Positions 1-57,376 of a stretch of 64,000 nucleotides of DNA are shown piece by piece. A program made the position numbers and the translations under genes. Positions within the stretch are counted from its first letter, which is position 1, and each line of letters opens with the position of its first letter. Below the pieces are notes generated by a model. The model was given only the letters and a program-made list of their open reading frames with translations. It searched no databases and had not been told where the DNA came from. Origin of the DNA: an uncultured Acidobacteriota bacterium (GTDB lineage: Bacteria; Acidobacteriota; Vicinamibacteria; Vicinamibacterales; 2-12-FULL-66-21); NCBI GenBank assembly GCA_963797715.1, contig CAWCQS010000013.1:350855-414854 (forward strand), written 5' to 3'.

Positions 1-270
1 GTCGATGGCCGCTCGAAGGACTGGCAGTCGCGCTACGCTCCTTATGGCTATAGGGGCAATGCCGACTTCAACTTCCGCTCGTTCAGGACGACGAACGTGC
101 TGCGGTGGGAATATCGTCCCGGCTCGGCACTGTTCGTCGTCTGGCAACAGGGCCGCGAGGAGAACGAGTCCTTCGGCAAGTTCCGCTTCAGTCGTGACTT
201 CGGCGGCGTCTTCGGCGTGCCTGCAAACAACGTGTTTCTGGTGAAGTTTTCTTACTGGCTGAATTACTAG
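1..270 (+). CDS. C-terminal end of an outer-membrane beta-barrel protein (DUF5916-like); the N-terminus lies outside the window
   Basis: Frame 1 reads VDGRSKDW..NVLRWEYRPGSALFVVWQQGREEN..NNVFLVKFSYWLNY up to TAG 268-270. The aromatic terminal strand is typical of OM barrels. The track ORF 5..244 is in a different frame and looks spurious. Confidence 0.5.
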   Translation, partial: VDGRSKDWQSRYAPYGYRGNADFNFRSFRTTNVLRWEYRPGSALFVVWQQGREENESFGKFRFSRDFGGVFGVPANNVFLVKFSYWLNY

Positions 271-295
271 CTTTCAGCTGTCAGCTCTCAGCTTC
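268..295. repeat. Tandem heptamer array (4 units, tagcttt cagctgt cagctct cagcttc)
   Basis: Period-7 repeat read directly. It spans the 3-nt gap between two convergent stop codons and encodes the last residues (KLRADS*) of the minus-strand gene. Confidence 0.7.
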
Positions 296-636
296 GACGA
301 ACGTGCATCGACATAGAGCCACGCGGTCGTCCCTGAGGCCAGCACGACCGACACCCTTACGTACGACGCTCCGCGTTCGTACTCGTCAGCGGCGGCAAGC
401 TCCGCATCAGTCACCACGAACACTGTGCCGCGCACTCGACTCTCGGGGCTCCCAGTGAACAACGCATTTGCGTAGTGCGTATGGCCGGTGCTGGCGATGA
501 CCTGCGGGTCGTCAATCCGGATGAGCGTCGGCTCGAACTTTGGTAACTCGTCAGGCCGCCCTTGCAGCCGCCGTCCGAATGTCGACACCTGCACCCGCAC
601 GTCTTGAAGAGTGCCGTACGAAAAGAGGAGCGGCAT
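274..636 (-). CDS. Gamma-glutamylcyclotransferase (AIG2/GGCT-like) family protein
   Basis: MPLLFSYGTLQ.. N-terminal YGTL motif, about 120 aa. I chose the internal ATG at 636 because the upstream part of ORF 274..822 overlaps the PBP gene end and is Arg/Ser-rich junk. Confidence 0.7.
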   Translation of the reverse strand: MPLLFSYGTLQDVRVQVSTFGRRLQGRPDELPKFEPTLIRIDDPQVIASTGHTHYANALFTGSPESRVRGTVFVVTDAELAAADEYERGASYVRVSVVLASGTTAWLYVDARSSKLRADS

Positions 637-664
637 GTCGTCTCCAGGTGCAATCGGTCGTTCG

Positions 665-2713
665 TTACCGAAAGATGCCCCGAATTCGCTTTCCGAGCCC
701 CGACAGTAACCCATCGAATGCGCGACGCACCTGTTGCTTGAACGATCCCTTGTGGATCGGGCACAAGCCGCTCGGCGCCTTGTCATCAGGCTTGAGATAC
801 TCGGTGTAGGTCGGGCACCCATCTACGGGCCGCAAGTACGAGATGCGACAGAGCGTGGTTTCCTTCAGACCCGCGGGGGCATCGAACGCTTCTGGCGCTC
901 GCACCCGCGCGGCGCGCTTCATGAACTCGGACCAGAGCGGCGCCGCATAGCGCGACCCATAGGCGTCCCGCCCTATCGGCTTCGGTTGATCGAAGCCGAC
1001 CCAGACGCCGACCACGAGATTCGACGAGAACCCGACGAACCACGCGTCCTTGAAATCGTTCGTCGTGCCCGTTTTGCCACCGACCGGGAAAGTCACGCCC
1101 TGTCTTCGCACGACGGCACCAGTTCCGCGGTCGACGACGTCGGCGAGCATCGACACCATCTGAAACGCGGTTTGCACGGAGATCACCCGCTCACTCGTGA
1201 TCGGGTTGTCGAGGGCGACGTCGCCGTCGGCATCGGTGACGCGCAGGATCGCGCGCGGCGTCACCGCCACGCCGCCGTTCGGAAAAGTCGCGTACGCGGC
1301 GGTGAGTTCGATGGGCGTCACCAGCCCGGTTCCGAGCGACAAGGACGGCACGTCCGGCATGTCGTGCAGGCCGACGTGCGAAGCGAGCCGCAGGACAGGA
1401 CGCGATCCGACGCGCTGTTGCAGGACAGTTGCGGCGCGATTGTTCGACTCGAGAAGTGCCGCGCGAAGTGTCAGAACGTCCGGTGTCTCACCGCCGGCGT
1501 TGCGCGGCGACCACTCGTCCGGTCCCTGCGGCTCGATCGTCATCAGCCCCTCGATGGTCGATACCGGCGAGTAGCCATGCTCGAGCGCTGTGGCGAAGAG
1601 GAGCGGCTTGAACGCAGAGCCAGGTTGCCGGCGGCTGCGGCTCGCGCGGTTGAACTGCGATTGCGTGAAGTCGCGGCCGCCAACGAGCGCGAGGATGTTC
1701 CCCGTCCGCGGATCGATCGCGACGAGCGCCGCTTGCAAGTCCGGCTCGTTGAACCGTGCCAGCCCGCTGCGCACGGCTTGTTCTGCCTGTTCCTGTAGCG
1801 CCGGGACGAAGGTCGTCCGCACCTCCCAGTCCGGCGGGTGGTCGCCGCCAAAGCGCTCGCGGAAGAGCTGGCGTAGAAACTCCTTGGCATAGCCGGCGCG
1901 CGGATCGCTCGCGCCCGGGTACGGCCGAATACGAATGCTCGTCGAGCGCGCCTCGCGCTCCAGCGACGGAGTGATGAATCCTTCCTCGCGCATCCGCGCC
2001 AGGACCACGTGACTCCGCGCGATCGCGCCGTCGAGATTCGACCACGGCGAGAGCGTCGATGGCGCCCTCGCCAGGCCGGCGATGAGCGCACACTCCGCGA
2101 GGTTGAGCTGTTTGGCGGGCCGACCGAAGAGATGCCGAGACATCGTCTCGACGCCGTACACGCCGGCGCTGAGGTAAATCCGGTTGAGATAAAGCTCGAG
2201 CACCTGATCCTTCGTCAGCTGCCCGTCAATCATCATCGCCAGCACCGCTTCGCGCGCCTTTCGACCGTAGGTCTTCTTGTTCGACAGGAAAAGCGTGCGC
2301 GCCAACTGCTGGGTGAGCGTGCTTCCACCTTCGACGGTTCCGGGCGAGCGCAAATTTCGGACAACGGCACGGCCGAGTGCGATGGGATCGACGCCAGGAT
2401 GCGCGTAGAACCGGTGATCCTCGACCGCGATGAACGCGTGCTGCAGGTGCTCGGGAATCTCGCTGAGCGGTACGTCCCGCCGGTGCTCGTCCATGCGGAA
2501 CCAGCGCCGGCCGTCGGCAGAGAGAAACCACGTATCTCCGACCCCGCGCGTCAACCGGTGAACGGCATAACCCTGACGCAGCAACCACGTCACCGTGAAC
2601 GCCGCGAGGACGACCATGCCGACAAGAACCACGGGCGCAACGCGGTCCCGCCAGCCGCTCGGCTCGCGCGGCCCACCCTCCCGCGCCGGCCACCAGCTCG
2701 GGCGCCGGGTCAC
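665..2713 (-). CDS. Class A penicillin-binding protein (transglycosylase/transpeptidase, PBP1A family)
   Basis: GT51 motifs VEDHRFYAHPGVD, GGSTLTQQ and RKAREA. Transpeptidase motifs SAFK (SxxK), SNN and KTGTT. There is an N-terminal TM helix. The likely GTG start at 2713 overlaps the upstream stop as GTGA. Confidence 0.9.
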   Translation of the reverse strand: MTRRPSWWPAREGGPREPSGWRDRVAPVVLVGMVVLAAFTVTWLLRQGYAVHRLTRGVGDTWFLSADGRRWFRMDEHRRDVPLSEIPEHLQHAFIAVEDHRFYAHPGVDPIALGRAVVRNLRSPGTVEGGSTLTQQLARTLFLSNKKTYGRKAREAVLAMMIDGQLTKDQVLELYLNRIYLSAGVYGVETMSRHLFGRPAKQLNLAECALIAGLARAPSTLSPWSNLDGAIARSHVVLARMREEGFITPSLEREARSTSIRIRPYPGASDPRAGYAKEFLRQLFRERFGGDHPPDWEVRTTFVPALQEQAEQAVRSGLARFNEPDLQAALVAIDPRTGNILALVGGRDFTQSQFNRASRSRRQPGSAFKPLLFATALEHGYSPVSTIEGLMTIEPQGPDEWSPRNAGGETPDVLTLRAALLESNNRAATVLQQRVGSRPVLRLASHVGLHDMPDVPSLSLGTGLVTPIELTAAYATFPNGGVAVTPRAILRVTDADGDVALDNPITSERVISVQTAFQMVSMLADVVDRGTGAVVRRQGVTFPVGGKTGTTNDFKDAWFVGFSSNLVVGVWVGFDQPKPIGRDAYGSRYAAPLWSEFMKRAARVRAPEAFDAPAGLKETTLCRISYLRPVDGCPTYTEYLKPDDKAPSGLCPIHKGSFKQQVRRAFDGLLSGLGKRIRGIFR

Positions 2714-4982: not shown

Positions 4983-5377
4983 TGGGCGGACGTGTCGCCG
5001 AAGAGCTCTTCATGAATCACATGACCAGCGGCGCCTCGAACGACATCGAACGCGCCACGGACATCGCCGAGCACATGGTTTGCGAATGGGGCATGTCCGA
5101 CCTCGGTCCGCTCGCCTACCGCAAGCCCGGTAATGCTTTCGAAGCCGATCGGCCGCACGGGATCAGCGAGGCCACCGCCCAGCGAGTGGATGAGGAAATC
5201 CGCCGCGTGGTCATGAACGGTTACGAGCGGGCGCGCGGCGTCATCGAAGAGCACCGCGAGGCCGTTCGCCTGCTTGCCGAAGAACTCCTCCAAATCGAAT
5301 CGCTCGAAGCCGACGAGATTCGCGCATTGCTCGAAAGAGCTGGGGCGCTGGTCGAGCGACCAGCGCTTAGCTCCTAG
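4982..5377 (+). CDS. ftsH: FtsH C-terminal fragment (rest of the M41 protease domain), in a different frame from the preceding fragment
   Basis: [33 protein letters not shown] matches the conserved FtsH LGGRxAEE..GASNDIxxAT block. The junction sequence is ggtaccTGATGggc. Confidence 0.85.
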   Translation: MGGRVAEELFMNHMTSGASNDIERATDIAEHMVCEWGMSDLGPLAYRKPGNAFEADRPHGISEATAQRVDEEIRRVVMNGYERARGVIEEHREAVRLLAEELLQIESLEADEIRALLERAGALVERPALSS

Positions 5378-5398
5378 CTCCTAACTCCTAGCTCCTAG
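5367..5398. repeat. Tandem heptamer array (ttagctc ctagctc ctaactc ctagctc ctag)
   Basis: Period-7 repeat containing the palindromic CTAG. TAG/TAA falls in all three frames on both strands, and the ftsH stop (5375-5377) lies inside it. Confidence 0.75.
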
Positions 5399-8721: not shown

Positions 8722-8785
8722 TTCAATTCTGAATGCTGACTGCTTATTGCTGAAGTGGAACGTGACATTCAATTCTGCATGAATC
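8722..8785. repeat. Direct repeat TTCAATTCTG(A/C)ATG (two copies, 8722-8735 and 8768-8781) in an AT-richer divergent intergenic region
   Basis: Read directly. It contains the CTGAATG word that recurs elsewhere in the window. Confidence 0.55.
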
Positions 8786-13369: not shown

Positions 13370-14197
13370 ATGCCCGAGGGAGATACTATCTACCGCGCCG
13401 CGGCGACGCTACACCGCGCGCTCGCGGGACAACACGTCGTGCGCTTCGAGTCTGTGTTTCCGGCGCTCACGCGCATACACGAGGATCATCCGTTGACGGC
13501 CATGACCGTCGAACGTGTCCAGTCCGTCGGTAAGCACCTCCTGATGCATTTTTCCGGAGGGTTCGTGCTGCGCACGCACATGCGCATGAACGGCAGCTGG
13601 CATATCTATCGGCCCAACGAACGCTGGCGCCGAAGCACGCGCGACATGCGTGTACTGGTGGCCACCTCGGATTACGTCGCGGTTGGATTCAACATTCCCG
13701 TGGCCGAGTTCGTGAAGGCTTCGGACCTCAGTCGGCACGAACCGGTCACCTCGCTCGGTCCTGACCCGCTCGCTGCGAACTTCGACCGGGATGAAGCAGT
13801 CCGCCGCCTACGCTCGAGACCGTTATCTCCGATCGCTGATGCACTGCTCAATCAACGCCTGCTCGCGGGCCTAGGCAACGTACTCAAGTGCGAGGCCCTC
13901 TTCGAGTGCCGCATCGATCCATTTACGACCGTCGCCAACCTGAGCGATGACCAGCTCGAACAACTCGTGGCCACTGGACGACGGCTGCTCGAGGTAAATG
14001 TCTCCGGCGCATCGAACGGCATGCGTGCCGACTCGAAGGTTCGGCGGACCACGCGCCGCGACAACCCAGCAGAGCGCCTGTGGGTTTACGGTCGGGCCGG
14101 CTTGCCATGCCGGCGGTGTGGCACGTCCATCGCCATCCGCAAACACGGCCTCGACGCTCGACTCACCTATTGGTGCCCATCGTGTCAGACCTCTTGA
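13370..14197 (+). CDS. nei: Fpg/Nei family DNA glycosylase/AP lyase (endonuclease VIII-like)
   Basis: N-terminal MPEGDTI catalytic motif, a C-terminal zinc finger CRRCGT..YWCPSCQ, and a position immediately after lhr. Confidence 0.85.
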   Translation: MPEGDTIYRAAATLHRALAGQHVVRFESVFPALTRIHEDHPLTAMTVERVQSVGKHLLMHFSGGFVLRTHMRMNGSWHIYRPNERWRRSTRDMRVLVATSDYVAVGFNIPVAEFVKASDLSRHEPVTSLGPDPLAANFDRDEAVRRLRSRPLSPIADALLNQRLLAGLGNVLKCEALFECRIDPFTTVANLSDDQLEQLVATGRRLLEVNVSGASNGMRADSKVRRTTRRDNPAERLWVYGRAGLPCRRCGTSIAIRKHGLDARLTYWCPSCQTS

Positions 14198-14589
14198 TCT
14201 GGCTCGCCCTCGCCGGAGGCACCGCCGCAGCTGCGGCGGCCTGGTACGGCCACTACTACGTTCTGCCGGGATGGCTGACCGGCCCGGAGATTTGCCGACT
14301 AGAGAACGGCGGTTGCACCGTGCTCTTTCGGAGTCCGCGCGCAGCGCTCCTTGGCGTACCCAACGCCACGCTCGGCCTCGTCCTCTACGCCCTGCTGGCC
14401 ACTGGAATGATCGTCGGTGCCCCGCTGCTCGCGCTGCTGACGATGACCGTGCCCGCCGTGGCGATGAGCGCCTTCCTGGGACGCAGCCTCATCGTCAACG
14501 GCCACCAGTGCCGCATCTGCTGGACAGGCCATTTCTCCAACGCCGTGTTGTTTCTGACGCTGCTCTGGAAGGCGTTGGGAGAAGTCTGA
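14182..14589 (+). CDS. Vitamin K epoxide reductase (VKOR)-family membrane protein
   Basis: Loop cysteines C-RLENGG-C, the block LLGVPNATLGLVLY, a CRIC redox motif (CxxC) and about 4 TM helices. The GTG start at 14182 overlaps the nei 3' end. The upstream part of ORF 14080.. is unlikely to be coding. Confidence 0.7.
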   Translation: MSDLLIWLALAGGTAAAAAAWYGHYYVLPGWLTGPEICRLENGGCTVLFRSPRAALLGVPNATLGLVLYALLATGMIVGAPLLALLTMTVPAVAMSAFLGRSLIVNGHQCRICWTGHFSNAVLFLTLLWKALGEV

Positions 14590-14678
14590 ATGCTGAGTGC
14601 TGAAGTCAATGCTGAAGTCATTGTGAACTTTTGAACTTCGAAGTTCACTACAGCATTCAGCCTTCAGCATTCAGAATT
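14587..14678. repeat. Composite element between convergent genes: left heptamer array (tgaatgc tgagtgc tgaagtc..tgaagtc), central hairpin GTGAACTT-N10-AAGTTCAC, and right inverted heptamer array (cagcatt cagcctt cagcatt cagaatt)
   Basis: Read directly. The two arrays are reverse complements of the same CTGAAKG unit, so the ~92-nt element can fold as one long hairpin. It starts at the VKOR stop and covers the last codons of fdhD (..ILNAEG*). Confidence 0.8.
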
Positions 14679-18731: not shown

Positions 18732-18876
18732 GTGCGCAATTCTAAGCCACGGAGAACGCGTGATGTCGGCAGAGGGAAAACACGGTTGAAATCAGCCACG
18801 GAAAACGCCGATGCCAGTGTGGGTCCGGGTCTTTCGTGGCGTAAAATTGAAACGCACCCCATACGGAGGCCCCCGA

Positions 18877-19875
18877 ATGAAGTCGTCGAAGTCGTTTCGG
18901 TCGCAGTGGTTCTGCGCGGTCACGTGTTCGTTCCTGCTGGCGCTGTCCGCGGCGCCCGCATTTGCCGATGTCAAGACCCGCGACAAGGGACAGGTCAAGT
19001 TCGAGGGCATGCTCGGCACGATGATGCGCATGTTTGGCGGCAAGGCCCTCGCCGAAGGCATCGTCTCGACCAGCGCCGTCAAGGGCAATCGCAAAGCCAC
19101 CATCAACGACCTCACCGGCCGCATCGTCGATCTCGGTGAAGAGAAGATTTACGAGCTCGACATGAAGAAGAAGACCTATACGGTCGTCACGTTTGCCGAG
19201 GTGCGGCAAAAGATCCGCGAGGCGCAGGAGCGCGCCGCAAAGGAAGCCAAGGAAGCCAAAGAGGCGCCGAAGGAAGGCGAGCCGGCACAGCCGTCAGCGG
19301 ACGGCAAGCAGGTCGAGTTCGATTTCGACGTCAAGGAAACCGGACAGACGCGCTCGATTGCCGGCTACGACGCCAAACAAGTCATCATGACCGTCACCGT
19401 CCGCGAGAAGGGCAAGACGCTCGAGGAGAGCGGCGGCGTCGTGCTCACTTCTGACTCCTGGCTCGGACCCGAGATCCCTGAGATGAAGGAGTTGGCCGAG
19501 TTCGAGATGAAGTACTGGAAGGCAATCGCGCCCGAAACCGCCCTCGTGTCGGCCGAACAGATGGCGGCCGTCGCAGCGATGTATCCGCTAATCAAGCCGG
19601 CGATGGATCGCCTGAATCAGGAAAAGGGCAGTCTCAAGGGCACGCCGCTCGCCACGACGATGACGTTCGAGGGCGTGAAGAGCAAGGCGCAGCTCGAGCA
19701 GCAGAGCAAGGAGAGCAGCGGCAGCGGGTTGAGCGGCATGCTCGCGCGAAAGATGATGAAGAAGGACGACCGGCCCCGCGCCACGATCTTCACGATGAGC
19801 AACGAGACGCTGGAGATTGCCAAGACCGTCGAGGCCGCCGATATCGACGTGCCAGCGGGATTTAAGGTGAAATAG
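18877..19875 (+). CDS. Secreted hypothetical protein with a Lys/Glu-rich low-complexity segment
   Basis: Signal peptide MKSSKSFRSQWFCAVTCSFLLALSAAPAFA and the segment EAQERAAKEAKEAKEAPKEGE. I am not confident of any family. Confidence 0.55.
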   Translation: MKSSKSFRSQWFCAVTCSFLLALSAAPAFADVKTRDKGQVKFEGMLGTMMRMFGGKALAEGIVSTSAVKGNRKATINDLTGRIVDLGEEKIYELDMKKKTYTVVTFAEVRQKIREAQERAAKEAKEAKEAPKEGEPAQPSADGKQVEFDFDVKETGQTRSIAGYDAKQVIMTVTVREKGKTLEESGGVVLTSDSWLGPEIPEMKELAEFEMKYWKAIAPETALVSAEQMAAVAAMYPLIKPAMDRLNQEKGSLKGTPLATTMTFEGVKSKAQLEQQSKESSGSGLSGMLARKMMKKDDRPRATIFTMSNETLEIAKTVEAADIDVPAGFKVK

Positions 19876-19909
19876 CGCAACGCAATTCTGAATGCCATCC
19901 GGAGGCACC

Positions 19910-21703: not shown

Positions 21704-21716
21704 ATGCTGAATTCTC
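21696..21716. repeat. Three heptamer units (aatcctg aatgctg aattctc) bridging two convergent stop codons
   Basis: Read directly. It belongs to the same CTGAATG family as 14587-14678 and 42612-42645. Confidence 0.55.
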
Positions 21717-41334: not shown

Positions 41335-42235
41335 GCATTGCGGTGTTGCCGTCGATCAGGGGCGCCTGGGTCAATGGCACCCAGAGGTCGGGGCTGTAAC
41401 CAATCTGTGTTCCGGTGAAACCCGCAGGCGCGACGCCGACGATCGTGAAGATCGCGTGGCGAAGGCGAACGGTCCGTCCGATCGCCGAAGGATCCGATCC
41501 AAATCGCTCTCGCCATGCCGTGTCGCTCAACACGACGACAGGAGGTTTCCCAGACTCACCATCGGCGGCGTCGAAGAGACGCCCCCGCGTGCCTGGACCA
41601 ACGCCGAGCGCCGAGAAGTAGTTCGCCGTCACCATTTCGATCACGATGCGCTGACGCGTGCGCGCGTCATCGATCGTCGAGTCGAGCGTCGTCGAGGTGC
41701 GGCCGCCGGCGATGAGCGTCTCGATTCCCGGGAGGTCGCGAAGGGCCAGGTATTCGGGGTAGGTGAACGACCCGCCGTCCTTCGCTCCGATGGAGACGAA
41801 CCGGTCGGCGTGTGCGATCGGCAGTTTCTTGAAGTAGGTCGCGTTCAAGACGGAGAAGGCGGCAGCGTTGACGCCGACGCCAACCGCGAGCGTCGAGACG
41901 ACGATGGCAGACAGCAGCGGGTGTCGCCAGCAGAAACGGAGAGCAGCGCGGAAATCGGTTCCCAGGCCACGACTGTCCTGCATGATCGCGCTCCTCAGTG
42001 AAATGCGTTCCGCGGGTTCGAGGCTGTGCACGGATGGCTCGCGCAGACAAGCAGCGATCGACAGCAGCGTCTGCCGCCAGTACCAGCGTCGAGCTGCGCG
42101 CAGGCCGAAGCGCTCGACGAGGATGCAGGAGAACTCCTCATCGAGGTCCCCGATGATGGCGGAACGGACCGGGCCGTCGAGCGCGCGTCGCAACAGCCAG
42201 CGAGCAAAACGTGGCGGCTGCGGCGTGGAGGTCAT
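41222..42235 (-). CDS. ADOP-type permease, N-terminal fragment (permease-prefix helix plus first TM and MacB-like periplasmic core)
   Basis: ..FARWLLRRAL..GDLDEEF.. prefix, DFRAALRFCWRHPLLSAIVVSTLAVGVGVNAAAFSV. It joins the next fragment at ..NARWKAER|RDDVAVVRLTP. Confidence 0.8.
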   Translation of the reverse strand: MTSTPQPPRFARWLLRRALDGPVRSAIIGDLDEEFSCILVERFGLRAARRWYWRQTLLSIAACLREPSVHSLEPAERISLRSAIMQDSRGLGTDFRAALRFCWRHPLLSAIVVSTLAVGVGVNAAAFSVLNATYFKKLPIAHADRFVSIGAKDGGSFTYPEYLALRDLPGIETLIAGGRTSTTLDSTIDDARTRQRIVIEMVTANYFSALGVGPGTRGRLFDAADGESGKPPVVVLSDTAWRERFGSDPSAIGRTVRLRHAIFTIVGVAPAGFTGTQIGYSPDLWVPLTQAPLIDGNTAMLGPAAGWLGLGGVLERIESLATVTAALNARWKAERTR

Positions 42236-42564
42236 GAGGTGCGCCTGACGTTGCCGTCGGGATCGCGTGCCAATGCCGAGAGCGCCGCTTCCGCTTTCGC
42301 GAGCGCCTTCTTCCCGGCGGCAAGCACACGATAGTAGCGCTTGGCTTTGCCACCGCGTTCGGGCGTCGGCTCCCCGAGCCAGGATTGGACGAGCCCGCGG
42401 CGCTCGAGGCGCGCGAGCGCGGTGTAAATGGCGCCAACCGCGATGTCGCGTCCGGTGTGATCAGCAAGCTGGCGACGAATCGTCATGCCGTACGCGTCGT
42501 CTTCGAGGCGCATGACCGCCAATAGCAGGAAATGTTCGAACCGCCCGAGATGGTCACCGGCCAT
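42232..42564 (-). CDS. PadR family transcriptional regulator
   Basis: FEHFLLLAVMRLEDDAYGMTIRRQL..AVGAIYTALARLERRGLV. The stop overlaps the permease start (ATGA). Confidence 0.85.
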   Translation of the reverse strand: MAGDHLGRFEHFLLLAVMRLEDDAYGMTIRRQLADHTGRDIAVGAIYTALARLERRGLVQSWLGEPTPERGGKAKRYYRVLAAGKKALAKAEAALSALARDPDGNVRRTS

Positions 42565-42611
42565 TGCTACTTCTTTGTAGTAAATATCACGACGCTTGTC
42601 AACTTCGTCAA

Positions 42612-42645
42612 TTCAGCACTCAGCATCCAGCATTCAGAATCAGCG
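42612..42645. repeat. Five tandem heptamers (ttcagca ctcagca tccagca ttcagaa tcagcg). On the gene strand this reads CGCTGA TTCTGAA TGCTGGA TGCTGAG TGCTGAA.
   Basis: Read directly. It starts at the TGA stop of the minus-strand oxidoreductase gene and supplies further TGA codons in other frames. Confidence 0.7.
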
Positions 42646-43956
42646 TCTAACTCCGTCTGGCAGCACGAGTTCGTTCGCCTTGTGCTTGGCCTCTTCGGGG
42701 GTCTGGCCCTCGTGCCATGCGGGTATGTCGCGATGTTCGGGCCCGTAGAGCGATTCCATCGGCGCCCACACTTTGTCGACGCGAGGCGTGAAGAGGTCGC
42801 CGATGAGAAGATCGGTCACCGTTCCTCGGAGCTCCGGATACTTGCGCACGAAGGCGCCGAAGCTGAAGCCGTTGTAGTACTCGCAGACGAGCCGGCGCAT
42901 GCGATCGACGCCTTCGTTGAAGCCGGCACCCCACTTCCCGAGCTGCGCCGCACTCACATCGCCGACTTTCAACCCCTCGGCAATCGCGTCGGCGGCCATC
43001 TCACCCGACCGCAAAGCCAGGAGCACACCCGACGAATACAGCGGATCGAGGAAACCGAAGGCATCGCCGACGAGCACCCATCCATCGCCCGCCACTTCCT
43101 TCGCGCGGTACGAGTAGTCGCGCGTGGCGAAATAGCCGGTGACGCGCGTCGCCTTCCCGATGCGGTCCTTGACGACCGGACAGCGCTCGACTTCCTCGTG
43201 ATACGTCTGCTCGTGACCGTCGCGGCCCTTGAACAGATAATCGAACGGTGCCACCACGCCGACGCTGACAATGTCGTCGTGCTGCGGGATGTACCAGAAC
43301 CAGCCGTTCTTTGACACCGTCTGCAACACCATCGTCGCGCCTTCGTCGCGGCCGGTGTCGCGGTAGGCGCCCTGCCAGTACGTCCAGATCGCGCCCTTGT
43401 TCAGCAGCGGATCCCACACGCGCAGCTTGAACCGGTTTTGCAGCAGCGCCGCCTGTCCGCTCGCATCGACGACGACCTTGGCGCGAATGTCGCGGCGCCC
43501 GTTGCCGTCGGCAATGCGCACGCCGCACGCGCGATCGCCCTCGAACAGCACGTCGACGACGTGCACGCCGTCGAACGCCTCGACGCCGTGCTCGCGCGCG
43601 TTGTCGAGCATCATCTGATCGAACTCGCTTCTGACGACCTGCCACGTCTGCGAGCATTCGTGTGGCTTGTTGTCCCAGAAGTAGAACGGCGCCGACAGCT
43701 TGCCGCTGGCATTGACGAACTGCACGCTGTACTTCTTGACGAAGTGGCTCTGCTGCATCTTCGGCAGCATGTTGAGCCGCTTCAAGACCCAGTAGGTCTC
43801 CGGAATCAGCGACTCGCCGATGTGAAAGCGTGGAAATTTCTCGCGCTCGAAGAGTCCGACCTTGAGCCCGTGCTGCGCCAGCAGCGTCGACGTGGTCGAC
43901 CCGGCCGGGCCGCCACCAATCACGACAACGTCATAACTCGATGAGGACATAGACAT
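42640..43956 (-). CDS. FAD-dependent oxidoreductase of the flavin-dependent halogenase-like family
   Basis: YDVVVIGGGPAGS (GxGxxG), GWFWYIP (WxWxIP halogenase signature) and GDAFGFLDPLYSSG (GDAxxFxDPxxSxG). Confidence 0.7.
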   Translation of the reverse strand: MSMSSSSYDVVVIGGGPAGSTTSTLLAQHGLKVGLFEREKFPRFHIGESLIPETYWVLKRLNMLPKMQQSHFVKKYSVQFVNASGKLSAPFYFWDNKPHECSQTWQVVRSEFDQMMLDNAREHGVEAFDGVHVVDVLFEGDRACGVRIADGNGRRDIRAKVVVDASGQAALLQNRFKLRVWDPLLNKGAIWTYWQGAYRDTGRDEGATMVLQTVSKNGWFWYIPQHDDIVSVGVVAPFDYLFKGRDGHEQTYHEEVERCPVVKDRIGKATRVTGYFATRDYSYRAKEVAGDGWVLVGDAFGFLDPLYSSGVLLALRSGEMAADAIAEGLKVGDVSAAQLGKWGAGFNEGVDRMRRLVCEYYNGFSFGAFVRKYPELRGTVTDLLIGDLFTPRVDKVWAPMESLYGPEHRDIPAWHEGQTPEEAKHKANELVLPDGVRR

Positions 43957-44066: not shown

Positions 44067-44108
44067 GCGAGCCGCGAACCGCGAGCCGCCAACCAAGAAC
44101 CCAATCAC
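44067..44108. repeat. Six tandem heptamers of GCGARCC type (gcgagcc gcgaacc gcgagcc gccaacc aagaacc caatcac)
   Basis: Read directly. It abuts and overlaps the stop codon (44105-44107) of the radical SAM gene. Confidence 0.6.
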
Positions 44109-45439
44109 GTATAACGAATTCCCGTATGCTGCGGCAGGAAGAACCGTGGCAGGAGCACGTCGACTCGCAGCAGCGCATTCCGGGTGATGGCAATCAGATC
44201 GTCGCCCGCCGACGACAGGTAACCTGCGGATTCGAGCGATGCCAGTTGATCGCGGAATCGCTGGAGAACGTTCACGCCGTACTTGTCCTTGAAATAGGCG
44301 GGCCGCACTGACCCTCGCTTGAGCTGCAGCACGAACTCGCGGATCATCCGCTCCTCGGCGGTCGGCCTGTAGGCCCGACCGAGCGGAATCTCGCCACGCT
44401 CGATGAGCGCGCTGTACTTCTCCCAGGTATCGACGTTCTGCAGGTGGACCCCGTTGATGTGGCCGAACGACGCGACCCCGAGTCCGACCATATCGGCACC
44501 CTGCCACAGACGGTCGCGATAGAGAAAGCGCGTCTTTGCCGGATTCTTGACCGCTGTGTAGGCGCTGCCGACCGTGTAGCCGGCGCGCTCGAGCGCCTCG
44601 AAGGCCTCGGCCACCCACCGTCGCTTGACCGACCACTGCGCCACCGGCTCGTCGAACTTCCCGCCATGCTTCAGCAGGTCCTTGCTGATGGTGGTGTTGT
44701 ACGGCAGCTCCATCTGGTAAATCGTGACGCTGTCAGGCGCGAGATCGACCGTACGTTTGACGCAGTCCGTCCAGTTGGCGTCGGTTTCGCCGAGCATGCC
44801 GGCGATCAGGTCGATGTTGATTTGCGGAAAGCCGAGGTCGCGGGCTTCTTTGTAGACCCGCGCAATCTCAGGCGAGCGATGCGCCCGACCGTTGAGTTCG
44901 AGAATGCGATCGTCATAATTCTCGACGCCCAGGCTGAGCCGGGTGACGCCGATACCCCGGATCGCCGCCAGCTTGGGACGAGTGATGGTGCCGGGCTCGC
45001 ACTCGAACGTGATCTCCTCGGCAGTCTTCCACGAGCGGCTCGCTGTCACGCGGTTGACGAGCGTCTCGAGCTGCCGGGTCGACAGAAACGAAGGCGTCCC
45101 ACCACCAAAGTAGACGAAGTTGAACGGCCGTCCGGCGAGCGCCGGCTGTTCGGCATAGAGCTCCCACTCGCGTCCCAGTAGATCGAGGTACTGCTCGACC
45201 TCTTTCGCATTCTTGTCCGTGTATACCCGGAAGTAGCAGAAATGACAGCGCTTACGGCAAAAAGGGATATGGAGATAGACGCCGAGCGGCGTCTCCGGCT
45301 GTGCCGGGGACTCGAGCGCGACCTTGGCATCCGTGGCGACGGCTTCTGGAGTCCAGACCGAAAACGGCGGGTAATTCGCGACAAAGTAGCTGCCGACCTC
45401 GGTCTGCTCGAGGTCGGCCACCGGCGACGTTTCGGGCAT
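44105..45439 (-). CDS. HemN-like radical SAM enzyme (coproporphyrinogen dehydrogenase / class C radical SAM family)
   Basis: YLHIPFCRKRCHFCYF (CxxxCxxC), YFGGGTPSFL and a HemN C-terminal-like domain. Confidence 0.8.
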   Translation of the reverse strand: MPETSPVADLEQTEVGSYFVANYPPFSVWTPEAVATDAKVALESPAQPETPLGVYLHIPFCRKRCHFCYFRVYTDKNAKEVEQYLDLLGREWELYAEQPALAGRPFNFVYFGGGTPSFLSTRQLETLVNRVTASRSWKTAEEITFECEPGTITRPKLAAIRGIGVTRLSLGVENYDDRILELNGRAHRSPEIARVYKEARDLGFPQINIDLIAGMLGETDANWTDCVKRTVDLAPDSVTIYQMELPYNTTISKDLLKHGGKFDEPVAQWSVKRRWVAEAFEALERAGYTVGSAYTAVKNPAKTRFLYRDRLWQGADMVGLGVASFGHINGVHLQNVDTWEKYSALIERGEIPLGRAYRPTAEERMIREFVLQLKRGSVRPAYFKDKYGVNVLQRFRDQLASLESAGYLSSAGDDLIAITRNALLRVDVLLPRFFLPQHTGIRYT

Positions 45440-45560: not shown

Positions 45561-45588
45561 GCGAGCGGCGAGCAGCGAGCCGCGACTT
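45561..45588. repeat. Four tandem heptamers (gcgagcg gcgagca gcgagcc gcgactt)
   Basis: Read directly. It lies immediately downstream of the stop codon of the minus-strand DUF937 gene. Confidence 0.6.
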
Positions 45589-49902: not shown

Positions 49903-52320
49903 CTACTCCGCCCGAAGAGAGACGATGGGGTCGATTCTGGCCGCTCGACGTCCGGGCACGTAACACGCGATGAACGCGACGACTGTCAACGTCAACGCAA
50001 TCGTCGCGAACGTACCCGGATCGTTGGCATCTACGCCAAAGAGTAGGGCGCGCATGTAACGCGTGACGACGAACGATCCAGCGAGGCCCAGCGCCATGCC
50101 GGCCAGCGCGACGAACATGCCCTGTCGCACGACGAGCATCAGCACGTCGCCCGGCGCGGCCCCGAGCGCCAGACGAATGCCAAGCTCCCGCGTGCCCTGG
50201 CTCACGAGATACGACATGACGCCGTAGACGCCGATTGCGGCCAGGCCGAGCGCCAGCACCGCGAACAGTGCCAGCAGCAGCATGGAAAAGCGCCGCTCGG
50301 CGAGGGAGGACGCAACTCGCTCCCCCATCGTGCGCATCTTATAGATCGGCAGATCGGGATCGAGCGATCGAATCTGAGCGGTCACCGCCGAGGCGAGCCC
50401 TGCGGCGTCTGCGGCGCTCCTGATCACGACGTTCATGGCGCGCGACGGCGTCTGTCCCTGAAAACGATAAAAGGCGATGCGCGAGTCGGCGTCGAGGGCA
50501 TCTTGCTTGATGGCGCCAACGACCCCGACAACCGTCATCCAGGGCGTGTCAGGCGTCACGTCGAATCCGCCCGTGCGGATGCGCTTGCCGATTGGATCCT
50601 GGCCGGGCCACAACTGCTCCGCCATCCGCTCGTCGACCAGCACCACACGGGGTGAGGTCCTCGTATCGAGCTCGGGTGAAAAAAGGCGGCCCTGAATCAG
50701 CGGAATGTTCATCGCGCGAAAGTAATCACCGCCGGCGACGCGAATGTCGGCGTTGATGAACTTCTCGCCCTCCGGTCCAACGCGCCCTTCGACCGTGATC
50801 GGGCCCCACGCCATCATCTGGCTGAGCGGCAGGGCGGTGATCCCGCCGGCCGCAGTTACGCCCGGGAGCGCCGACAGGCGTTCCCACAGCTGACGGTAGG
50901 TCTGAATTACTACTTCGGCGTCGTTGTACTTGCGGCCGGTCATCGTCAGTTCGAGCGTCAGCACGTTCGAGGCATTGAAGCCCGGCGAGATCCGCTGCAG
51001 GTGCGCGAAGCTGCGCACGAGCAAGCCCGCTCCAACGAGGAGCACGACCGACAGCGCGAGCTCCGCGACGACGAGCATTCGGCGAAGATTGTGGCCGCGT
51101 CCCCAGACGGCGCTGGTTCCCGCCGATCCGCGTGTCCCGTCATTCAGGTGACGCTGCAGATCCATCGCCGACAGTCTGAGCGTTGGCGCGAGGCCGAATA
51201 TCGCTCCTGCCACCACCGACACGCCGATGGTGAAGAGCAGAACACGCCAGTCGAACCCGATCTCATGGAGCCGCGGCACGCTGGCCTCGCCGAGCGCCCG
51301 GATACCCTGAAGGCAGAGAAACGCCAGCAGAAGCCCCAACGCGCCGCCGCCAATCGCCAGCACGAGGCTCTCGGTCAGCAACTGCCTGGCCAGACGCCAG
51401 CGGCTCGCGCCAAGAACAGCACGGACGGCAATTTCGCGCTGACGCGCGATCGCGCGCGACAGCAGCAGGTTGGCGACGTTCGCGCACGCGATGAGCAGCA
51501 CGAAGGCGACGGCAGCGGCAAGAACGATCAGGGCAAGCCGCACGCGCCCGACCGCCTGCTCCTGAAGCGGCAGCACGCGGAACGTCAATCCTCCGTTATG
51601 CGGGTAGAAGTCTGGATGCTCGCGCCTCAGCCGTGCGGTAAGCGCGTTGAGCTCGGCACGCGCCTGCTCGATTCCCGCGCCCGGCGTAAGCGTCGCGAGG
51701 ATGTTGTAGTCCTCGCGGTTCCGGATCTCGGCCGCGTTCGCCGGCAGCGGCAACGGCAGCGCGATTTCCGCATCATCGACGACGCCAAGGGTTGGCATCA
51801 CCTCGCGAGGTAGCGAGAACGAGGCGGGCAGGACGCCGACGATCTGATAGGGCTGTCCGTTCAGCGTCAACGACCGGCCGACGACTGCCCGGTCGCTCAC
51901 CGTAGCGGCGTGTCCACGTGCCGAATCCGAGGAGGGCCTTACCAGCCCGTCCCGGCCGGTCGTCGTCGGATGTGAAGAGATCGCCGAGCAGCGGCCGGAC
52001 CCCGAGCATCGGCAGCAGATTGGAAGAGACGCGAATGGTGCCGATCCGTTCAGGTTCACCATCGCCGGTGAGGTTGGCATTCGCACCAATCGCAATCGCG
52101 ACGCTCTCGAAGCTGCGCTGGCCATTCCGAATGTCGAAGTACTGCGCGGTCGAGAACCAGTCCTCGGTGATGCCGAGACCTGGAGAGGTATTCCACAGAA
52201 TGACCTGGCGGTCTGCGTTCGCGTACGGCAGCGGGCGCAGCAGGAGTGCGCTCGTGACGCTGAAGATCGCAGTATTGGCGCCGATGCCGATCGCGAGCGA
52301 CAGCAACGCCGCCGCCGCAA
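49903..52320 (-). CDS. Second ADOP-type permease, C-terminal fragment (genuine from about 51909)
   Basis: ..[27 protein letters not shown].., two FtsX modules, ending [17 protein letters not shown]. Confidence 0.85.
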
Positions 52321-52436: not shown

Positions 52437-53426
52437 ATGCATGACTTCAGACGCCTCGCTGCGGCAGCCGCGCTCGTCGTCGCCGCGAGCACGCCAACCG
52501 TCACACAACCGAATCCATATACCGCGATTGAGAAGTGGGGACAGCTGCCGGCCGGGCGCACATGGGGATCCACGAGCGCCGTCGACGTTGCGCCTGACGG
52601 ACACATCTGGGTTGCCGAACGCTGCGGCGCCAATACCTGCGCCGGTTCGAATCTTCCTCCGATTCTCGAGTTCGATCCGTCGGGCAAGCTTCTGCGCAGC
52701 TTCGGCGCGGGCATGCTCATCTTCCCGCACGGGTTCCACGTCGACCGCGACGGCAACGTCTGGGTCACCGACGCGCAAGGCAGCGACGGCAAGGGGCATC
52801 AGGTTCTGAAGTTCAGTCCCGATGGCAAGCTGCTGCTCGCGCTCGGCAAAGCCGGTGTCGCTGGTTCAGGACCCGACGAGCTCAATCAGCCCTCGGACGT
52901 CGTGGTGGGACCGAACGGGGACATCTTCGTTGCCGACGGCCACGACGAAGGGTCGAACATGCGCATCGTGAAGTACACGAAAGACGGCAAGTTCATCAAG
53001 AGCTGGGGCAAACCTGGTTCGGGCCCCGGCGAGCTCAACGTGCCGCACGGCATCGCCTTCGATTCGCAGGGACGGCTCTTCGTCGCCGACCGCGCCAACA
53101 ACCGCCTGCAGATTTTCGATCAGGACGGGAAGCTACTCGGAGAGTGGAAGCAGTTCAGCAGGGTGAGCGGCATCTACATCGACAAGAACGACGTGCTTTA
53201 CGCCGCCGACTCGGAGTCGAACACCAAGCGCAATCCGGGGTGGAAGCGCGGCATCCGTGTCGGGAGCGCGCGGAACGGCATCATCTCCGCGTTCATCCCC
53301 GACCCGGAAGCCAAACCCGACGAGTCCGCGACCAGCGGTGCCGAAGGCATCGCCGCGGATGCGCAAGGCAACATCTTCGGCGCCGAGGTCGGTCCGAAGA
53401 TGATCAAGAAGTACGTCAGGAAGTAG
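52437..53426 (+). CDS. NHL-repeat six-bladed beta-propeller protein (peptidyl-alpha-hydroxyglycine lyase-like)
   Basis: Repeats ..GHIWVAER.., ..PHGFHVDRDGNVWVTD.., ..PSDVVVGPNGDIFVADGH.. and ..PHGIAFDSQGRLFVADRANNRLQIF..; signal peptide. Confidence 0.75.
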   Translation: MHDFRRLAAAAALVVAASTPTVTQPNPYTAIEKWGQLPAGRTWGSTSAVDVAPDGHIWVAERCGANTCAGSNLPPILEFDPSGKLLRSFGAGMLIFPHGFHVDRDGNVWVTDAQGSDGKGHQVLKFSPDGKLLLALGKAGVAGSGPDELNQPSDVVVGPNGDIFVADGHDEGSNMRIVKYTKDGKFIKSWGKPGSGPGELNVPHGIAFDSQGRLFVADRANNRLQIFDQDGKLLGEWKQFSRVSGIYIDKNDVLYAADSESNTKRNPGWKRGIRVGSARNGIISAFIPDPEAKPDESATSGAEGIAADAQGNIFGAEVGPKMIKKYVRK

Positions 53427-53438: not shown

Positions 53439-53909
53439 CTACTTCTTTTTCTTTGGCATTCGCGACACGTCCGGCACGTCCTCTCCCAGTGCCGTCGCCA
53501 GATCGATCTGGTGCTCTTGCTCCTGGCGCAGGATCTCGCGGATGTCTTCCGCGATCGCGTACTCCTGCAGCGCCTCGCACTGCTTGAGCCGCTCGCGGTA
53601 GTTCTTGACGGTGTCGTTCTCGTTGGCCAGATCCGCGCGGAGCATCACTTCGGCTTTCTCGCTCAGCTTGACCGGCAACGCCGTTCCGGTCGGCATACCG
53701 CCGAGGTAGTCGATGTGGCGCGCGATGGTAATCGCGTGCTGCAGTTCCTCGCCAGCATGGACTTCGAGCTCCGCGGCGATGTTCATGTACTGCGCGCCCT
53801 TGAGCGCCTGCGAGTAGACGACGTAGGCGATGATTGCCTGGTATTCCCTGGCAAGGTCTTCGTTCAGGCGTTCGATCAACTGTTCGCGTGTAATTGCCTC
53901 ATCGGCCAT
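53439..53909 (-). CDS. Ferritin-like (bacterioferritin-like) four-helix-bundle protein
   Basis: LNEDLAREYQAIIAYVVYSQ..ELEVHAGEELQHAITIARHI.. (E..EExxH pattern). ATG 53909 has AAGGGAG 7 nt upstream. An alternative start is GTG 53927. Confidence 0.65.
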   Translation of the reverse strand: MADEAITREQLIERLNEDLAREYQAIIAYVVYSQALKGAQYMNIAAELEVHAGEELQHAITIARHIDYLGGMPTGTALPVKLSEKAEVMLRADLANENDTVKNYRERLKQCEALQEYAIAEDIREILRQEQEHQIDLATALGEDVPDVSRMPKKKK

Positions 53910-54036
53910 GTAGGCATCTCCCTTCACATGTCATTTGTAGTCGTTCCTTCAAGAGTCTACTCGTGTGCCGCTGCTACAAGCTCAGCTACGTCTGCGCTTC
54001 GAGTACAGTAAGCACGCGCGCATACAGCTGACTTTC

Positions 54037-55452: not shown

Positions 55453-55515
55453 AATTCTGAATTCTGCAGGCTGAGGTGGGAAGCGGAAGGGATGAAGTGG
55501 GAAGTTTGAAGTCTG
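55453..55515. repeat. Nine tandem heptamers (aattctg aattctg caggctg aggtggg aagcgga agggatg aagtggg aagtttg aagtctg)
   Basis: Read directly. It starts 6 nt after the antiporter stop, and TGA occurs in all three frames. Confidence 0.65.
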
Positions 55516-56445: not shown

Positions 56446-56480
56446 CGTATGAGGATACCGGAACTGGTCCCGCCGCGGCG

Positions 56481-57263
56481 TCAGCCGCGCAGCGTCTTGA
56501 CGGTCTCCGTGGCCTTGTCGAGTAAGAAGCCGATATCGCTGTTGCAGCTGAACAGCCGCAGCCCGCGGTCGCTCCACTGCCGGGCGAGCTCCAGGGTGCG
56601 CATGTGGATGCCGGGCGCGATGCCGGCCCGATCGCACCGCTCGCGAATCTTCTCGACGGCGGCGACAAACGTCGGGTGGGAAAAGTCGCCGGCGACGCCA
56701 AGCGAGATCGACAGGTCGCCGGGGCCGATGAGAACCGCGTCGATATTCGGCACGGCGAGGAGATCGTCGATCCGCTCGAGCGCCGTTCTCGTCTCGATTT
56801 GCAGCACGACGAGCACGTTCGCGTTGATGTGCGCGATGGCGTCAGGGATCGAGACGGCTTCGTACTCGAGCTGCGGCGCCGCGAGTCCAAAGCCGCGCGT
56901 CCCCATCGGCGGAAACCGCGTCCAGCTGACGGCCGCCGCCAGCAACTCCGGCGACTCGACACGCGGGAGGAGCACACCCTGGGCGCCGCAGTCGAGCGCG
57001 CGCGCGATGAGTGCGTACTGCAGATCGGCGACTCTGACGATCGGACAGAGTCCGGCGCCGGCCGCAACGCGCATCAGATCCTGCAGCGTCTCAAGACCAA
57101 ACGGCCCGTGCTCGGCATCGAAGAAGACCCAGTCGAGGCCGGCTGCCGCCAGCGCGCGGACGGCGTCGACCGAACGAAGCTGAAAACAGCTGCAGCCAAG
57201 CTGCACCTGACCGTCACGGAGAGCTTGTTTGACGCGATTTTGACGCACGGCGCGATCATACAT
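56481..57263 (-). CDS. HpcH/HpaI family aldolase
   Basis: ..GLDWVFFDAEHGPF.., ..GVLLPRVES.., ..PPMGTRGFG.., ..VVLQIETR.., ..GPGDLS.. Confidence 0.8.
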   Translation of the reverse strand: MYDRAVRQNRVKQALRDGQVQLGCSCFQLRSVDAVRALAAAGLDWVFFDAEHGPFGLETLQDLMRVAAGAGLCPIVRVADLQYALIARALDCGAQGVLLPRVESPELLAAAVSWTRFPPMGTRGFGLAAPQLEYEAVSIPDAIAHINANVLVVLQIETRTALERIDDLLAVPNIDAVLIGPGDLSISLGVAGDFSHPTFVAAVEKIRERCDRAGIAPGIHMRTLELARQWSDRGLRLFSCNSDIGFLLDKATETVKTLRG

Positions 57264-57270
57264 ACAACTT

Positions 57271-57376
57271 CTGAAAGCTGACAGCTGATCAGCTCTCAGC
57301 TCTCAGCTCTCAGCTCTCAGCTCGTCCGAACTGAGAACTCCTAGCTGACAGCTGACAGCTGAGAGCTGAGAGCTGT
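57271..57376. repeat. About 15 consecutive heptamers: (CAGCTCT)5 facing (AGCTGAC)2(AGCTGAG)2, plus a CTGAAAG/CTGACAG/CTGATCA lead-in. Together they form a long imperfect inverted repeat.
   Basis: Read directly. It fills almost the entire 124-nt divergent intergenic region between ATG 57263 (minus strand) and ATG 57388 (plus strand). Confidence 0.85.

Follow-up and report, generated by a model that had tools for sequence, protein, structure and literature searches.

What are the short tandem heptanucleotide arrays that lie between genes, mostly at stop codons, in a 64-kb stretch of DNA from a Vicinamibacterales acidobacterium (the window), and how might they have arisen? The original prediction had listed eleven such sites as possible terminators, fail-safe stops or a REP-like family. 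We compared the window with 80 related loci retrieved via FdhD (here given L numbers); their labels are nearly all those of Vicinamibacterales or Acidobacteriota metagenome-assembled genomes, the best FdhD is 79% identical, and both Illumina and long-read assemblies are included. Window and loci together comprise 1.39 Mb, 11.8% of which is intergenic by codon-bias gene calls. The answer that we favour, with roughly even confidence, is that the arrays are heptamer microsatellites made by slippage, the paired ones being 3' hairpins or transcription barriers and the single ones unstructured spacers.

Arrays were called with Tandem Repeats Finder (TRF), at least three copies of the unit being required, and block-shuffled windows gave the chance level for the window. 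The window had 13 rows of period 7, against 0.4 per shuffle, and other unit lengths did not behave like 7; the tandem heptanucleotide family is therefore real. Indeed, a lag scan gave seven segments at lag 7, two at lag 9 and none at lags 5, 6, 8, 10 and 11, and identity at that lag was 0.281 in intergenic DNA, an increase that coding DNA (0.259) did not show. The listed sites are clear in ten of eleven cases; the remaining one, 55453-55515, is a decayed array, and both it and 21696-21716 fall under the TRF threshold. With window genes taken from codon-bias calls and checked with Pfam, a stop codon was overlapped or adjoined at 9 of the 11 sites, as had been stated (the exceptions are 8722-8785 and 57271-57376), and the quoted C-termini KLRADS (GGACT gene), ILNAEG (fdhD) and ALSS (FtsH), each followed by the stop, were correct. 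The claimed recurrence of the word CTGAATG at seven sites did not hold: the exact word occurs at four of the listed sites, and its 10 occurrences in the window, against 6.2 expected, are not significant.

The arrays might have been produced by assembly, or spread by a transposase as a mobile family like the repetitive extragenic palindromes (REP) and bacterial interspersed mosaic elements (BIME) or the miniature inverted-repeat transposable elements (MITE); we regard this as highly improbable. A short-read contig does break inside an array, BIME-like inverted pairs lie at 3' ends, and the unit repertoires are genome-specific to a degree, all of which would fit. The same-species contig L086 ends inside the left arm 57271-57323, where it differs from the window by one indel and one substitution, and a metagenome scan with the junction word 57254-57274 returned a single same-species contig, which ends in the array, and three unrelated low-GC contigs. 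However, identical arrays are present in independent JGI, ENA and NCBI assemblies and with both sequencing technologies. L081, L082 and L086 are independent contigs of the same species, 96.8-99.2% identical to the window; 21696-21716 is identical in L081 and L082, and 55453-55515 is identical in L086. The relatives' assemblies of either technology, Illumina or long-read, also contain arrays. Because independent same-species contigs and relatives carry them, the arrays are real and lineage-wide, and the independent assemblies refute an assembly artefact. As for a mobile family, single arrays are direct repeats whose non-palindromic units vary by locus, neither target duplications nor flanks in common were seen, and no transposase family had a Pfam match among the 40 proteins scanned in the 64-kb window. 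Of the proposed REP-like family, the partly genome-specific repertoires thus stand and the palindromic unit does not.

The excess of period 7 extended across the relatives. In the 1.39 Mb, arrays of period 7 numbered 143 in intergenic and 31 in coding DNA; the corresponding counts were 8 and 19 for period 6, 27 and 8 for period 8, and 29 and 34 for period 9. Copy number per array had a median of 4.4, and array density was 0.9-2.0 per 10 kb in each FdhD-identity bin; extrapolated from ~1-2 arrays per 10 kb, hundreds of arrays would be present per Vicinamibacterales genome. In the origin that we propose, a 7-nt unit would have been duplicated and units then gained or lost by slipped-strand mispairing, with 7-nt steps strongly favoured across Vicinamibacterales. 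Selection would clear arrays from most coding DNA and let them build up in transcribed spacers, notably right after stops, and occasional arrays may survive in frame in tolerant protein loops.

The units themselves are diverse. Among 154 arrays we counted 109 different canonical heptamers, AATGCTG (= CTGAATG) being the commonest; ATTCTGA and ATCCTGA units also occur among the arrays of this lineage. CTGA/TCAG was contained in 46 of 155 independent units where 11 were expected (z 11), and CAGC/GCTG in 37 of them (z 8). Arrays at different spacers had the identical unit in 10% of pairs within a locus and in 1.3% between loci (permutation z ~3.8), which makes the within-genome rate 7.5 times the between-genome rate; the repertoires are partly genome-specific. 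Same-unit arrays were also seen in neighbouring spacers of individual relatives (CGGATCC at 8255 and 9401 in L022; TTGGGAG at 8190 and 17752 in L056).

Such biases could be read as the mark of RNA or DNA binding platforms for a host factor that reads the 7-nt register, in which the CTGA/TCAGC core would serve post-transcriptional or translational control and phages would exploit the factor. The CTGA and CAGC counts and the genome-specific repertoires point this way, and so does the word ATTCTGAATKC, which with at most one mismatch is 9-fold enriched in the window (9 occurrences against 1.05 expected, a solo copy included). Arrays that immediately precede starts lacking an obvious Shine-Dalgarno sequence, at 8719 and in a phage, the unstructured state of single arrays and the CTGA heptamers of Geobacter (PMC2700814) and of Beggiatoa, cyanobacteria and Bacteroidetes (PMC4679880) are consistent with it as well; ribosomal protein S1 and Csp or CsrA-like proteins have been proposed as binders of TAACTGA repeats. 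Yet ~70% of the units, of which there are so many different ones, are without CTGA, arrays are oriented either way with respect to genes, no candidate protein emerged, and the sharing of CTGAATG with phages is due to query ascertainment. We therefore hold binding platforms to be quite unlikely. It is also rather unlikely that the 7-nt register stems not from ordinary slippage but from a dedicated host process or factor, common to bacteria and phages and perhaps a protein or ribonucleoprotein that reads or lays down CTGA/TCAGC-type heptads, with the arrays as an evolvable cis-element system. If this were true, paired arrays would be self-renewing bidirectional terminators, single arrays would be intercistronic control sites, and one mechanism would also underlie the CTGA heptamers of Geobacter, Beggiatoa, cyanobacteria and Bacteroidetes.

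Where the arrays lie depends on the orientation of the flanking genes. Convergent spacers carried an array in 22% of cases (2.8 arrays per kb), tandem spacers in 6.4% (0.61 per kb) and divergent spacers in 9% (0.51 per kb). An inverted partner, counted if within 150 nt, accompanied 69% of the arrays in convergent spacers, 54% in divergent spacers, 27% in tandem spacers and 6% in coding DNA (controls, 0-7%), and in the matched pairs (n = 25) arms of ~4 units were separated by a median of 24 nt. Of 45 convergent spacers, 33 had an array at most 10 nt from a stop; of 38 tandem spacers, 18 did, and in 28 the array was closer to the upstream stop.

Could these positions reflect fail-safe stops, in which units with TGA or TAG every 7 nt halt read-through or frameshifted ribosomes in all frames, before the spacer or hairpin is reached? 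A stop triplet was present in 46% of stop-adjacent units in the sense orientation, against 27% in antisense and 32% in shuffled units (z ~3), CTGA next to stops was in the sense orientation in 22 cases and antisense in 7, and several window arrays give TGA or TAG in all three frames, as had been pointed out. However, the bias is partly built in, since an open reading frame (ORF) ends at the first stop that it meets. Moreover, more than half of the stop-adjacent arrays are stop-free (GCGAGCC, AACTCCC and GGCTTCA among their units), both orientations occur in phage, and arrays are also found upstream of starts and in divergent spacers. The surplus of stop triplets that the original prediction implied is thus present, but many units contain none, and fail-safe stops are a very unlikely explanation.

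Pairing is the property that can be connected to structure. Strong folds in the window were limited to 14585-14675, 29385-29413 and 57271-57376 (z -4.5 to -6.2), so the expectation that inverted pairs form long hairpins holds for three of the eleven sites; the other eight were no more structured than shuffles. In a folding survey of spacers with z from mononucleotide shuffles, convergent spacers with an array had a median z of -5.7. Convergent spacers without an array were still rich in structure, 39% of them having z < -2 against 13-16% of the other spacer types, and therefore the array hairpins fill the niche that ordinary hairpins occupy in relatives. Facing complementary arrays, mostly between convergent genes, are predicted to form hairpins of 25-40 bp. 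Paired arrays most likely act as 3'-end structures, in which capacity they would be bidirectional transcription barriers, protect mRNA 3' ends, or both; the matching of their arms may come from selection for pairing or from hairpin-templated copying. Single arrays are unstructured, relatively AT-rich spacers, for which a landing site of ribosomes or RNA-binding proteins and stops in all frames are candidate roles.

Gene ends shared between species showed that arrays come and go. Occupancy at orthologous ends was 5 of 13 for FtsH, 9 of 36 for the VKOR-family gene, 6 of 14 for the amidase, 8 of 22 for the neighbouring hypothetical gene and 2 of 23 for the Ser/Thr kinase, and the units were unrelated between species (those found at FtsH differ from the window's). 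The 3' end of fdhD had an array in 6 of the 80 loci, 5 of which have a convergent neighbour. Depending on the species, the spacer between the amidase and the hypothetical gene contained no array, a single one or a pair, with AATGCTG, ATTGCTG, GGGCTCA, GGGATCC or CAACGCC as the unit. The window and its species have three unpaired units there and L083 has no spacer at all; L001, L003 and L006 have paired AATGCTG arms, in L014, L022 and L024 ATTGCTG arms pair on either side of a GC hairpin that has a T-run, a core that L020 encloses in AATGCTG arms, and L084 has paired GGGCTCA arms. Pairing of the arms was kept via A-U to U-A exchanges. In L055, L058 and L061, which are 92-94% identical, multi-unit indels affected both arms of one spacer while the flanks were conserved, and in L055 both arms had expanded together. 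Some arrays are perfect, for example with 5 copies at 100%.

Arrays were also found in a protein-coding gene and in viruses. In several relatives, the ORF of the Lhr helicase contains in-frame period-7 arrays in one variable loop just after VARFLGG (CCTTGTC x11.6, ACTTTTG x5 and CTGACGA x6). They yield low-complexity peptide, for example QQKGQGKRDKGQRERDKGQGTREEG, and this insert is absent from the Lhr of the window. These in-frame arrays argue for a general mutational process that is then filtered by selection. A scan of viral contigs for (CTGAATG)3 gave 15 loci, mostly with a GC content of 57-70% and mostly dense in period-7 arrays of many units; since the contigs were selected by this query, only their other arrays are unbiased evidence. 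IMGVR_UViG_3300028840_003139 (L089, L091, L096, L098 and L100) is a 40-kb tailed phage with a GC content of 0.63 that encodes a terminase large subunit, portal, major head protein and head-tail adaptor. It has 28 arrays in 37 kb (~7.5 per 10 kb, about one per 1.3 kb), in both orientations and mostly unpaired, among them composite blocks of (CTGAATG)5-6 followed by (CCCTGAC)7-11 that recur every 0.4-1 kb. Other viral contigs are comparably dense, L092 having 12 arrays in 6.3 kb.

Do these data require any function? The arrays could be a pure by-product of mutation, that is, neutral or slightly selfish microsatellites that survive wherever they are harmless and whose inverted pairs arise and remain matched not by selection but by template switching within hairpins (quasi-palindrome correction). 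The sporadic occupancy of orthologous ends, the unrelated units of different species, the invasion of the Lhr loop, the joint expansion of both arms in L055 and the lack of structure in single arrays are all consistent with this. On the other hand, arrays are 3.4 times commoner in convergent than in tandem spacers, per spacer, paired arrays occupy the places of relatives' ordinary hairpins, a 40-kb phage under packaging constraint retains ~28 arrays, CTGA next to stops is biased to the sense strand, and unit repertoires are genome-specific. A by-product pure and simple is possible but somewhat unlikely.

The reading that we favour, slippage followed by selection with paired arrays as 3' structures, also has several observations to contend with. 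Simple slippage accounts neither for the sharpness with which 7 is preferred to 6 or 8, nor for the CTGA/TCAGC enrichment, nor for the 7.5-fold sharing of units within genomes. Eight of the eleven window sites are unstructured when compared with shuffles. In the window sequence no U-tract or T-run follows the array hairpins, and a terminator scan of the window found none at the arrays and no overall enrichment (a promoter scan was likewise not enriched); classical intrinsic termination is therefore not supported. Rfam families had no match anywhere in the window. The terminator role of the original prediction is plausible for the paired arrays alone, that is, at three of eleven sites, and it is weakened by the missing U-tract and the unstructured single arrays. 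Paired arrays are also found in divergent promoter spacers, for example at 57271-57376, and no change in copy number was seen at 21696-21716 and 55453-55515, the two arrays covered over their whole length by same-species contigs. Finally, the phage arrays separate structural genes that run in the same direction, and often precede a start codon by 3-20 nt. A terminator inside such structural operons would be harmful, and therefore single arrays cannot be terminators.

The lineage offers natural experiments to separate mutational bias from selection, with more than 100 units, co-changing arms, comparable orthologous spacers and copies in a loop and in phage. A practical effect, in an abundant soil lineage, is that short-read assemblies break at arrays and the predicted ends of genes are displaced. 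The individual sites are collected in Table 1.

Table 1. Heptamer arrays of the window and of the Lhr loop of relatives, with repeat calls, RNA folding and gene context
Position	Strand	Units	Basis	Fold	Stop codons inside, abutting or near	Context
268..295	.	(CAGCTNT)x4	TRF 269-293, 3.6 copies, 88% matches	z +0.5, unstructured	268-270, 274-276	Fills convergent spacer of DUF5916-like gene (1..270, +) and GGACT gene (274..636, -), both stops inside; encodes last GGACT residues; minus strand has CTGA in three successive units
5367..5398	+	(TAGCTCC)x4.4	TRF 5368-5398, score 55, 91% matches	z +1.1, unstructured	5375-5377	Stop of FtsH C-terminal ORF is TAG of second unit
8722..8785	-	(AATGCTG)x4.3 at 8725-8754, plus decayed copies	TRF 8725-8754, 73% matches	z +0.6, unstructured		Directly upstream of ATG (8719, -) of small conserved ORF; spacer divergent from Lhr; no stop codon; orthologous array in L006
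14586..14620	+	5' arm (CTGAATG)x4.7	TRF 14586-14616, sequence, Pfam	Hairpin of both arms, 14585-14675: -42.4 kcal/mol (z -4.7) plus, -39.8 kcal/mol (z -5.6) minus	14587-14589	TGA of VKOR-family gene (14173..14589) within first unit
14651..14678	-	3' arm (CAGCATT)x4, inverted partner of 14586-14620	TRF 14651-14678, Pfam, C-terminus		14657-14659	fdhD stop within array
19884..19895	+	Solo AATTCTGAATGC word, ~1.5 units; absent from the original list	ATTCTGAATKC search			34-nt spacer between 18817..19875 and amidase start 19910 (start from 597-aa homologues)
21696..21716	+	Three units, AATCCTG AATGCTG AATTCTC	Sequence; below TRF threshold		21701-21703, 21716-21718	Fills 12-nt convergent spacer of amidase and 21716..23515 (-); no partner arm
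29385..29413	+	Palindromic GAAAGTCTGACGTCAGACGTCAGACTTTC = (GTCAGAC)x3	TRF 29389-29409	-19.8 kcal/mol, z -4.5	29382-29384	13-bp hairpin directly after TAA of DinB-family gene
42611..42645	-	(CTGAATG-like)x4, sense = minus	TRF 42611-42637, sequence, Pfam	z +0.4, unstructured	42640-42642	Begins at TGA of FAD-dependent halogenase-like gene (42640..43923), upstream of PadR
44067..44108	-	(GCGAGCC/GCGAACC)x4, plus decayed copies	TRF 44067-44094, sequence, Pfam	z +1.0	44105-44107	Just downstream of radical-SAM gene stop; unit without stop triplet
45561..45588	-	(GCGAGCN)x3.6	TRF 45561-45585, sequence, Pfam	z +0.5	45588-45590	Just downstream of DUF937 gene stop
55453..55515	+	Decayed array of 9 heptads: 2 x AATTCTG, then AAGNNNG-like	Sequence; not called by TRF	z +1.2	55445-55447	6 nt past stop of Na+/H+ exchanger gene
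57271..57323	+	Left arm CTGAAAG, CTGACAG, then (TCAGCTC)x5 perfect	TRF 57271-57294, 57289-57323; score 70, 100% matches	Both arms, 57271-57376: -60 kcal/mol (z -5.7) plus, -70.7 kcal/mol (z -6.2) minus		Divergent spacer of HpcH-family aldolase (56481..57263, -) and PQQ/BamB-like gene (57400.., +)
57343..57376	+	Right arm (AGCTGAC)x2, then (AGCTGAG)x2.7, inverted partner of left arm	TRF 57343-57375			Same spacer; -35-like CTGACA 18 nt upstream of TAAAAT (57376-57381), promoter-like matches
L010 8469-8549; L013 10090-10124; L068 18854-18896; also L020, L022		Lhr-loop arrays				Orthologues of window 8851-13533

The arrays 44067-44108 and 45561-45588 share the GCGAGCN unit family and the strand; same-unit arrays therefore flank the radical-SAM gene (44105..45439). 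The solo word at 19884-19895 is a seed or remnant of the heptamer family. The small ORF behind the array at 8722-8785 (8446-8719, minus strand) encodes ~85-90 amino acids starting MGDSGEGLVDADARIQEQMEE and is conserved downstream of the Ser/Thr kinase in many relatives; it has no obvious Shine-Dalgarno sequence, and the array is immediately upstream of its ATG.

Promoter-like sequence next to an array was also observed in divergent spacers of relatives (L025 6087-6368, L044 7572-7710, L048 7735-7899, L035 5549-5663 and L032 2797-3002), where the array abuts the word 'cattgtata(a)' or 'cattataga'. This conserved word precedes, by ~45 nt, an ATG that follows ggaggac. In the direction of the gene it reads as a TACAAT-like -10 box, which would put the array at the position of a -35 region. 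Arrays as -35 promoter boxes would fit 57343-57376 but, by eye, not L025, and this candidate was rejected. The hairpin with the core GGCCGAAC..GTTCGGCC was likewise rejected as a genome-wide element, since a single orthologous spacer accounts for 4 of its just 9 copies. Readings of the arrays as DNA-uptake sequences, Chi-like sites or restriction sites (CTGAAG) were considered and dropped.

Most relatives have a co-directional gene after fdhD and, in front of that gene, the conserved TGGCAC-N5-TTGC, a sigma-54 promoter motif of the -24/-12 type, ~60-110 nt downstream of fdhD (L001-L037, e.g., L001 ~10870, L015, L020 and L022); the window differs from them in that fdhD is convergent with a VKOR-family gene. 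A REP-like palindrome, GGCTTCCGCCTNNAGGCGGAAGC, which is unlike the arrays, recurs in relatives' spacers, partly at gene ends that hold arrays elsewhere (L018 7822; L022 8219; L026 8216, 8260 and 18499; L029 550 and 620; L031 18098; L043 13161). In those parts of the window that were scanned, a single clear terminator of canonical form was found, with a 12-bp stem, a 6-nt loop and a T-run, at 53418-53447 between the convergent genes of an NHL-repeat protein (52437..53426) and a ferritin-like protein (53439..53927).

Several window genes look interrupted. FtsH is split at 4982 (4975-4985), where it ends in TQVAGT and a stop and continues in a different frame; two pieces each are seen of a sodium:solute symporter (29424-30131 and 30034-31578) and of an FtsX/MacB-type permease (41222-42193 and 39433-41157); PEPCK (36306-37808) is truncated in its C-terminal domain, at ~36540. 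The window differs from the same-species contig L086 by six single-base indels. Either indel errors in a long-read assembly or genuine pseudogenes may explain the interruptions. Coding DNA of the window also contains repeats of other lengths, namely CGGCGGCGT x19 (period 9) at 22970-23142 in the hypothetical gene 21716..23515 and a 42-nt unit x2.1 at 60088-60174 in the gene of a coiled-coil protein (58749..60542). A PadR-family regulator (42232..42564) adjoins the FtsX/MacB-type permease genes (39433-42564), and a second permease is encoded by 49903..51900; the pairing of PadR with such permeases is presumably that typical of acidobacterial 'duplicated orphan permeases'.

How do the arrays compare with known repeats? 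REP and BIME are imperfect palindromes of 20-40 nt with one conserved sequence that are mobilised by REP-associated tyrosine transposases (RAYT); they lie at 3' gene ends and are thought to stabilise mRNA or block read-through. Like these elements and the terminators of Enterobacteria, the paired arrays are repeated hairpins at 3' ends, often between convergent genes, but they are built of tandem 7-mers and lack the U-tract of a terminator. Heptameric tandem repeats have been known since 1990 as the short tandemly repeated repetitive sequences (STRR), with units such as CCCCAGT, TTGGTCA and CAACAGT in a few fixed families of filamentous cyanobacteria. The likeness to STRR drawn by the original prediction was upheld in that both consist of many intergenic heptanucleotide arrays, whereas the units here are diverse, locus-specific and often paired into hairpins. 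None of the STRR units named was found among the units of the window (TCAGCNN, TAGCTCC, GTCAGAC and GCGAGCC) or the common units of the relatives. STRR of Calothrix and Nostoc are cited as heptamer repeats in the Xanthomonas study (PMC4692102).

The survey of long simple-sequence repeats (LSSR) by Mrazek (2007), as summarised by later authors, found heptamers to be the commonest such repeats in many bacteria (PMC4679880, PMC4692102), in one summary in most of the genomes surveyed (PMC4679880), and 7 nt has been suggested in that context to be the stretch of DNA contacted by the polymerase (PMC4679880). As in the LSSR so summarised, for which slippage was proposed as the origin, the units here are 7 nt long and intergenic: we found head-to-tail heptamers beyond chance, intergenic over-representation of 7 nt and whole-unit changes between relatives (L055, L058 and L061). 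The summaries of the survey do not name Acidobacteria among the repeat-rich genomes, and they are without paired arms, an excess in convergent spacers and carriage by phages, all three of which were seen here. Our literature searches on heptamer repeats in Acidobacteria returned nothing, in line with the original prediction, which knew of no description in such genomes.

Other described heptamers are the TAACTGA arrays upstream of start codons in Beggiatoaceae, cyanobacteria and Bacteroidetes (MacGregor 2015, PMC4679880) and the MTYCTGA x5 and GGACCGG x4 sites of Geobacter metallireducens (PMC2700814). The TAACTGA and MTYCTGA heptamers have the CTGA core in common with our arrays, some of which likewise lie a few nucleotides upstream of starts without a clear ribosome-binding site. 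However, they are single-sequence families mostly upstream of starts, whereas the arrays described here mostly follow stops and have varied units.

Closest in anatomy are the GGGAATC arrays of Xanthomonas (Rehm et al. 2015), of which there are ~185 per genome, mostly of four units and 89-93% intergenic (PMC4692102). They lie much nearer to the preceding ORF, at its stop codon or overlapping it, and a genome has 70-75 inverted pairs capable of forming stem-loops; array length differs between related species, and no function has been assigned to them (PMC4692102). The arrays of the window and its relatives also have ~4 units, inverted pairs, positions at stop codons and lengths that vary between relatives. 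Because this anatomy (~4 units, stop-proximal, frequently in inverted pairs), which is that of the heptamers of Xanthomonas and Nostoc, recurs here, the arrays belong to an already known kind of repeat; the original prediction had missed the Xanthomonas precedent (PMC4692102). The units set them apart. Xanthomonas has one G-rich consensus capable of forming G-quadruplexes; here we found more than 100 units, mostly without G-tracts and biased to CTGA/TCAGC. The tract of three to four G per unit that characterises the Xanthomonas and Nostoc heptamers is lacking in the window, in no array of which every unit has a GGG tract, and GGG-bearing units such as GGGGTCA and GGGCTCA occur in a few arrays of relatives and of the phage. 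Unlike in Xanthomonas, the arrays are also concentrated more strongly in convergent spacers, are carried by a phage as well and belong to an Acidobacteriota lineage. Compared with the known systems, it is the diversity of units with matched arms, the concentration in convergent spacers and the carriage by a protein loop and by phage that are distinctive of the arrays described here.

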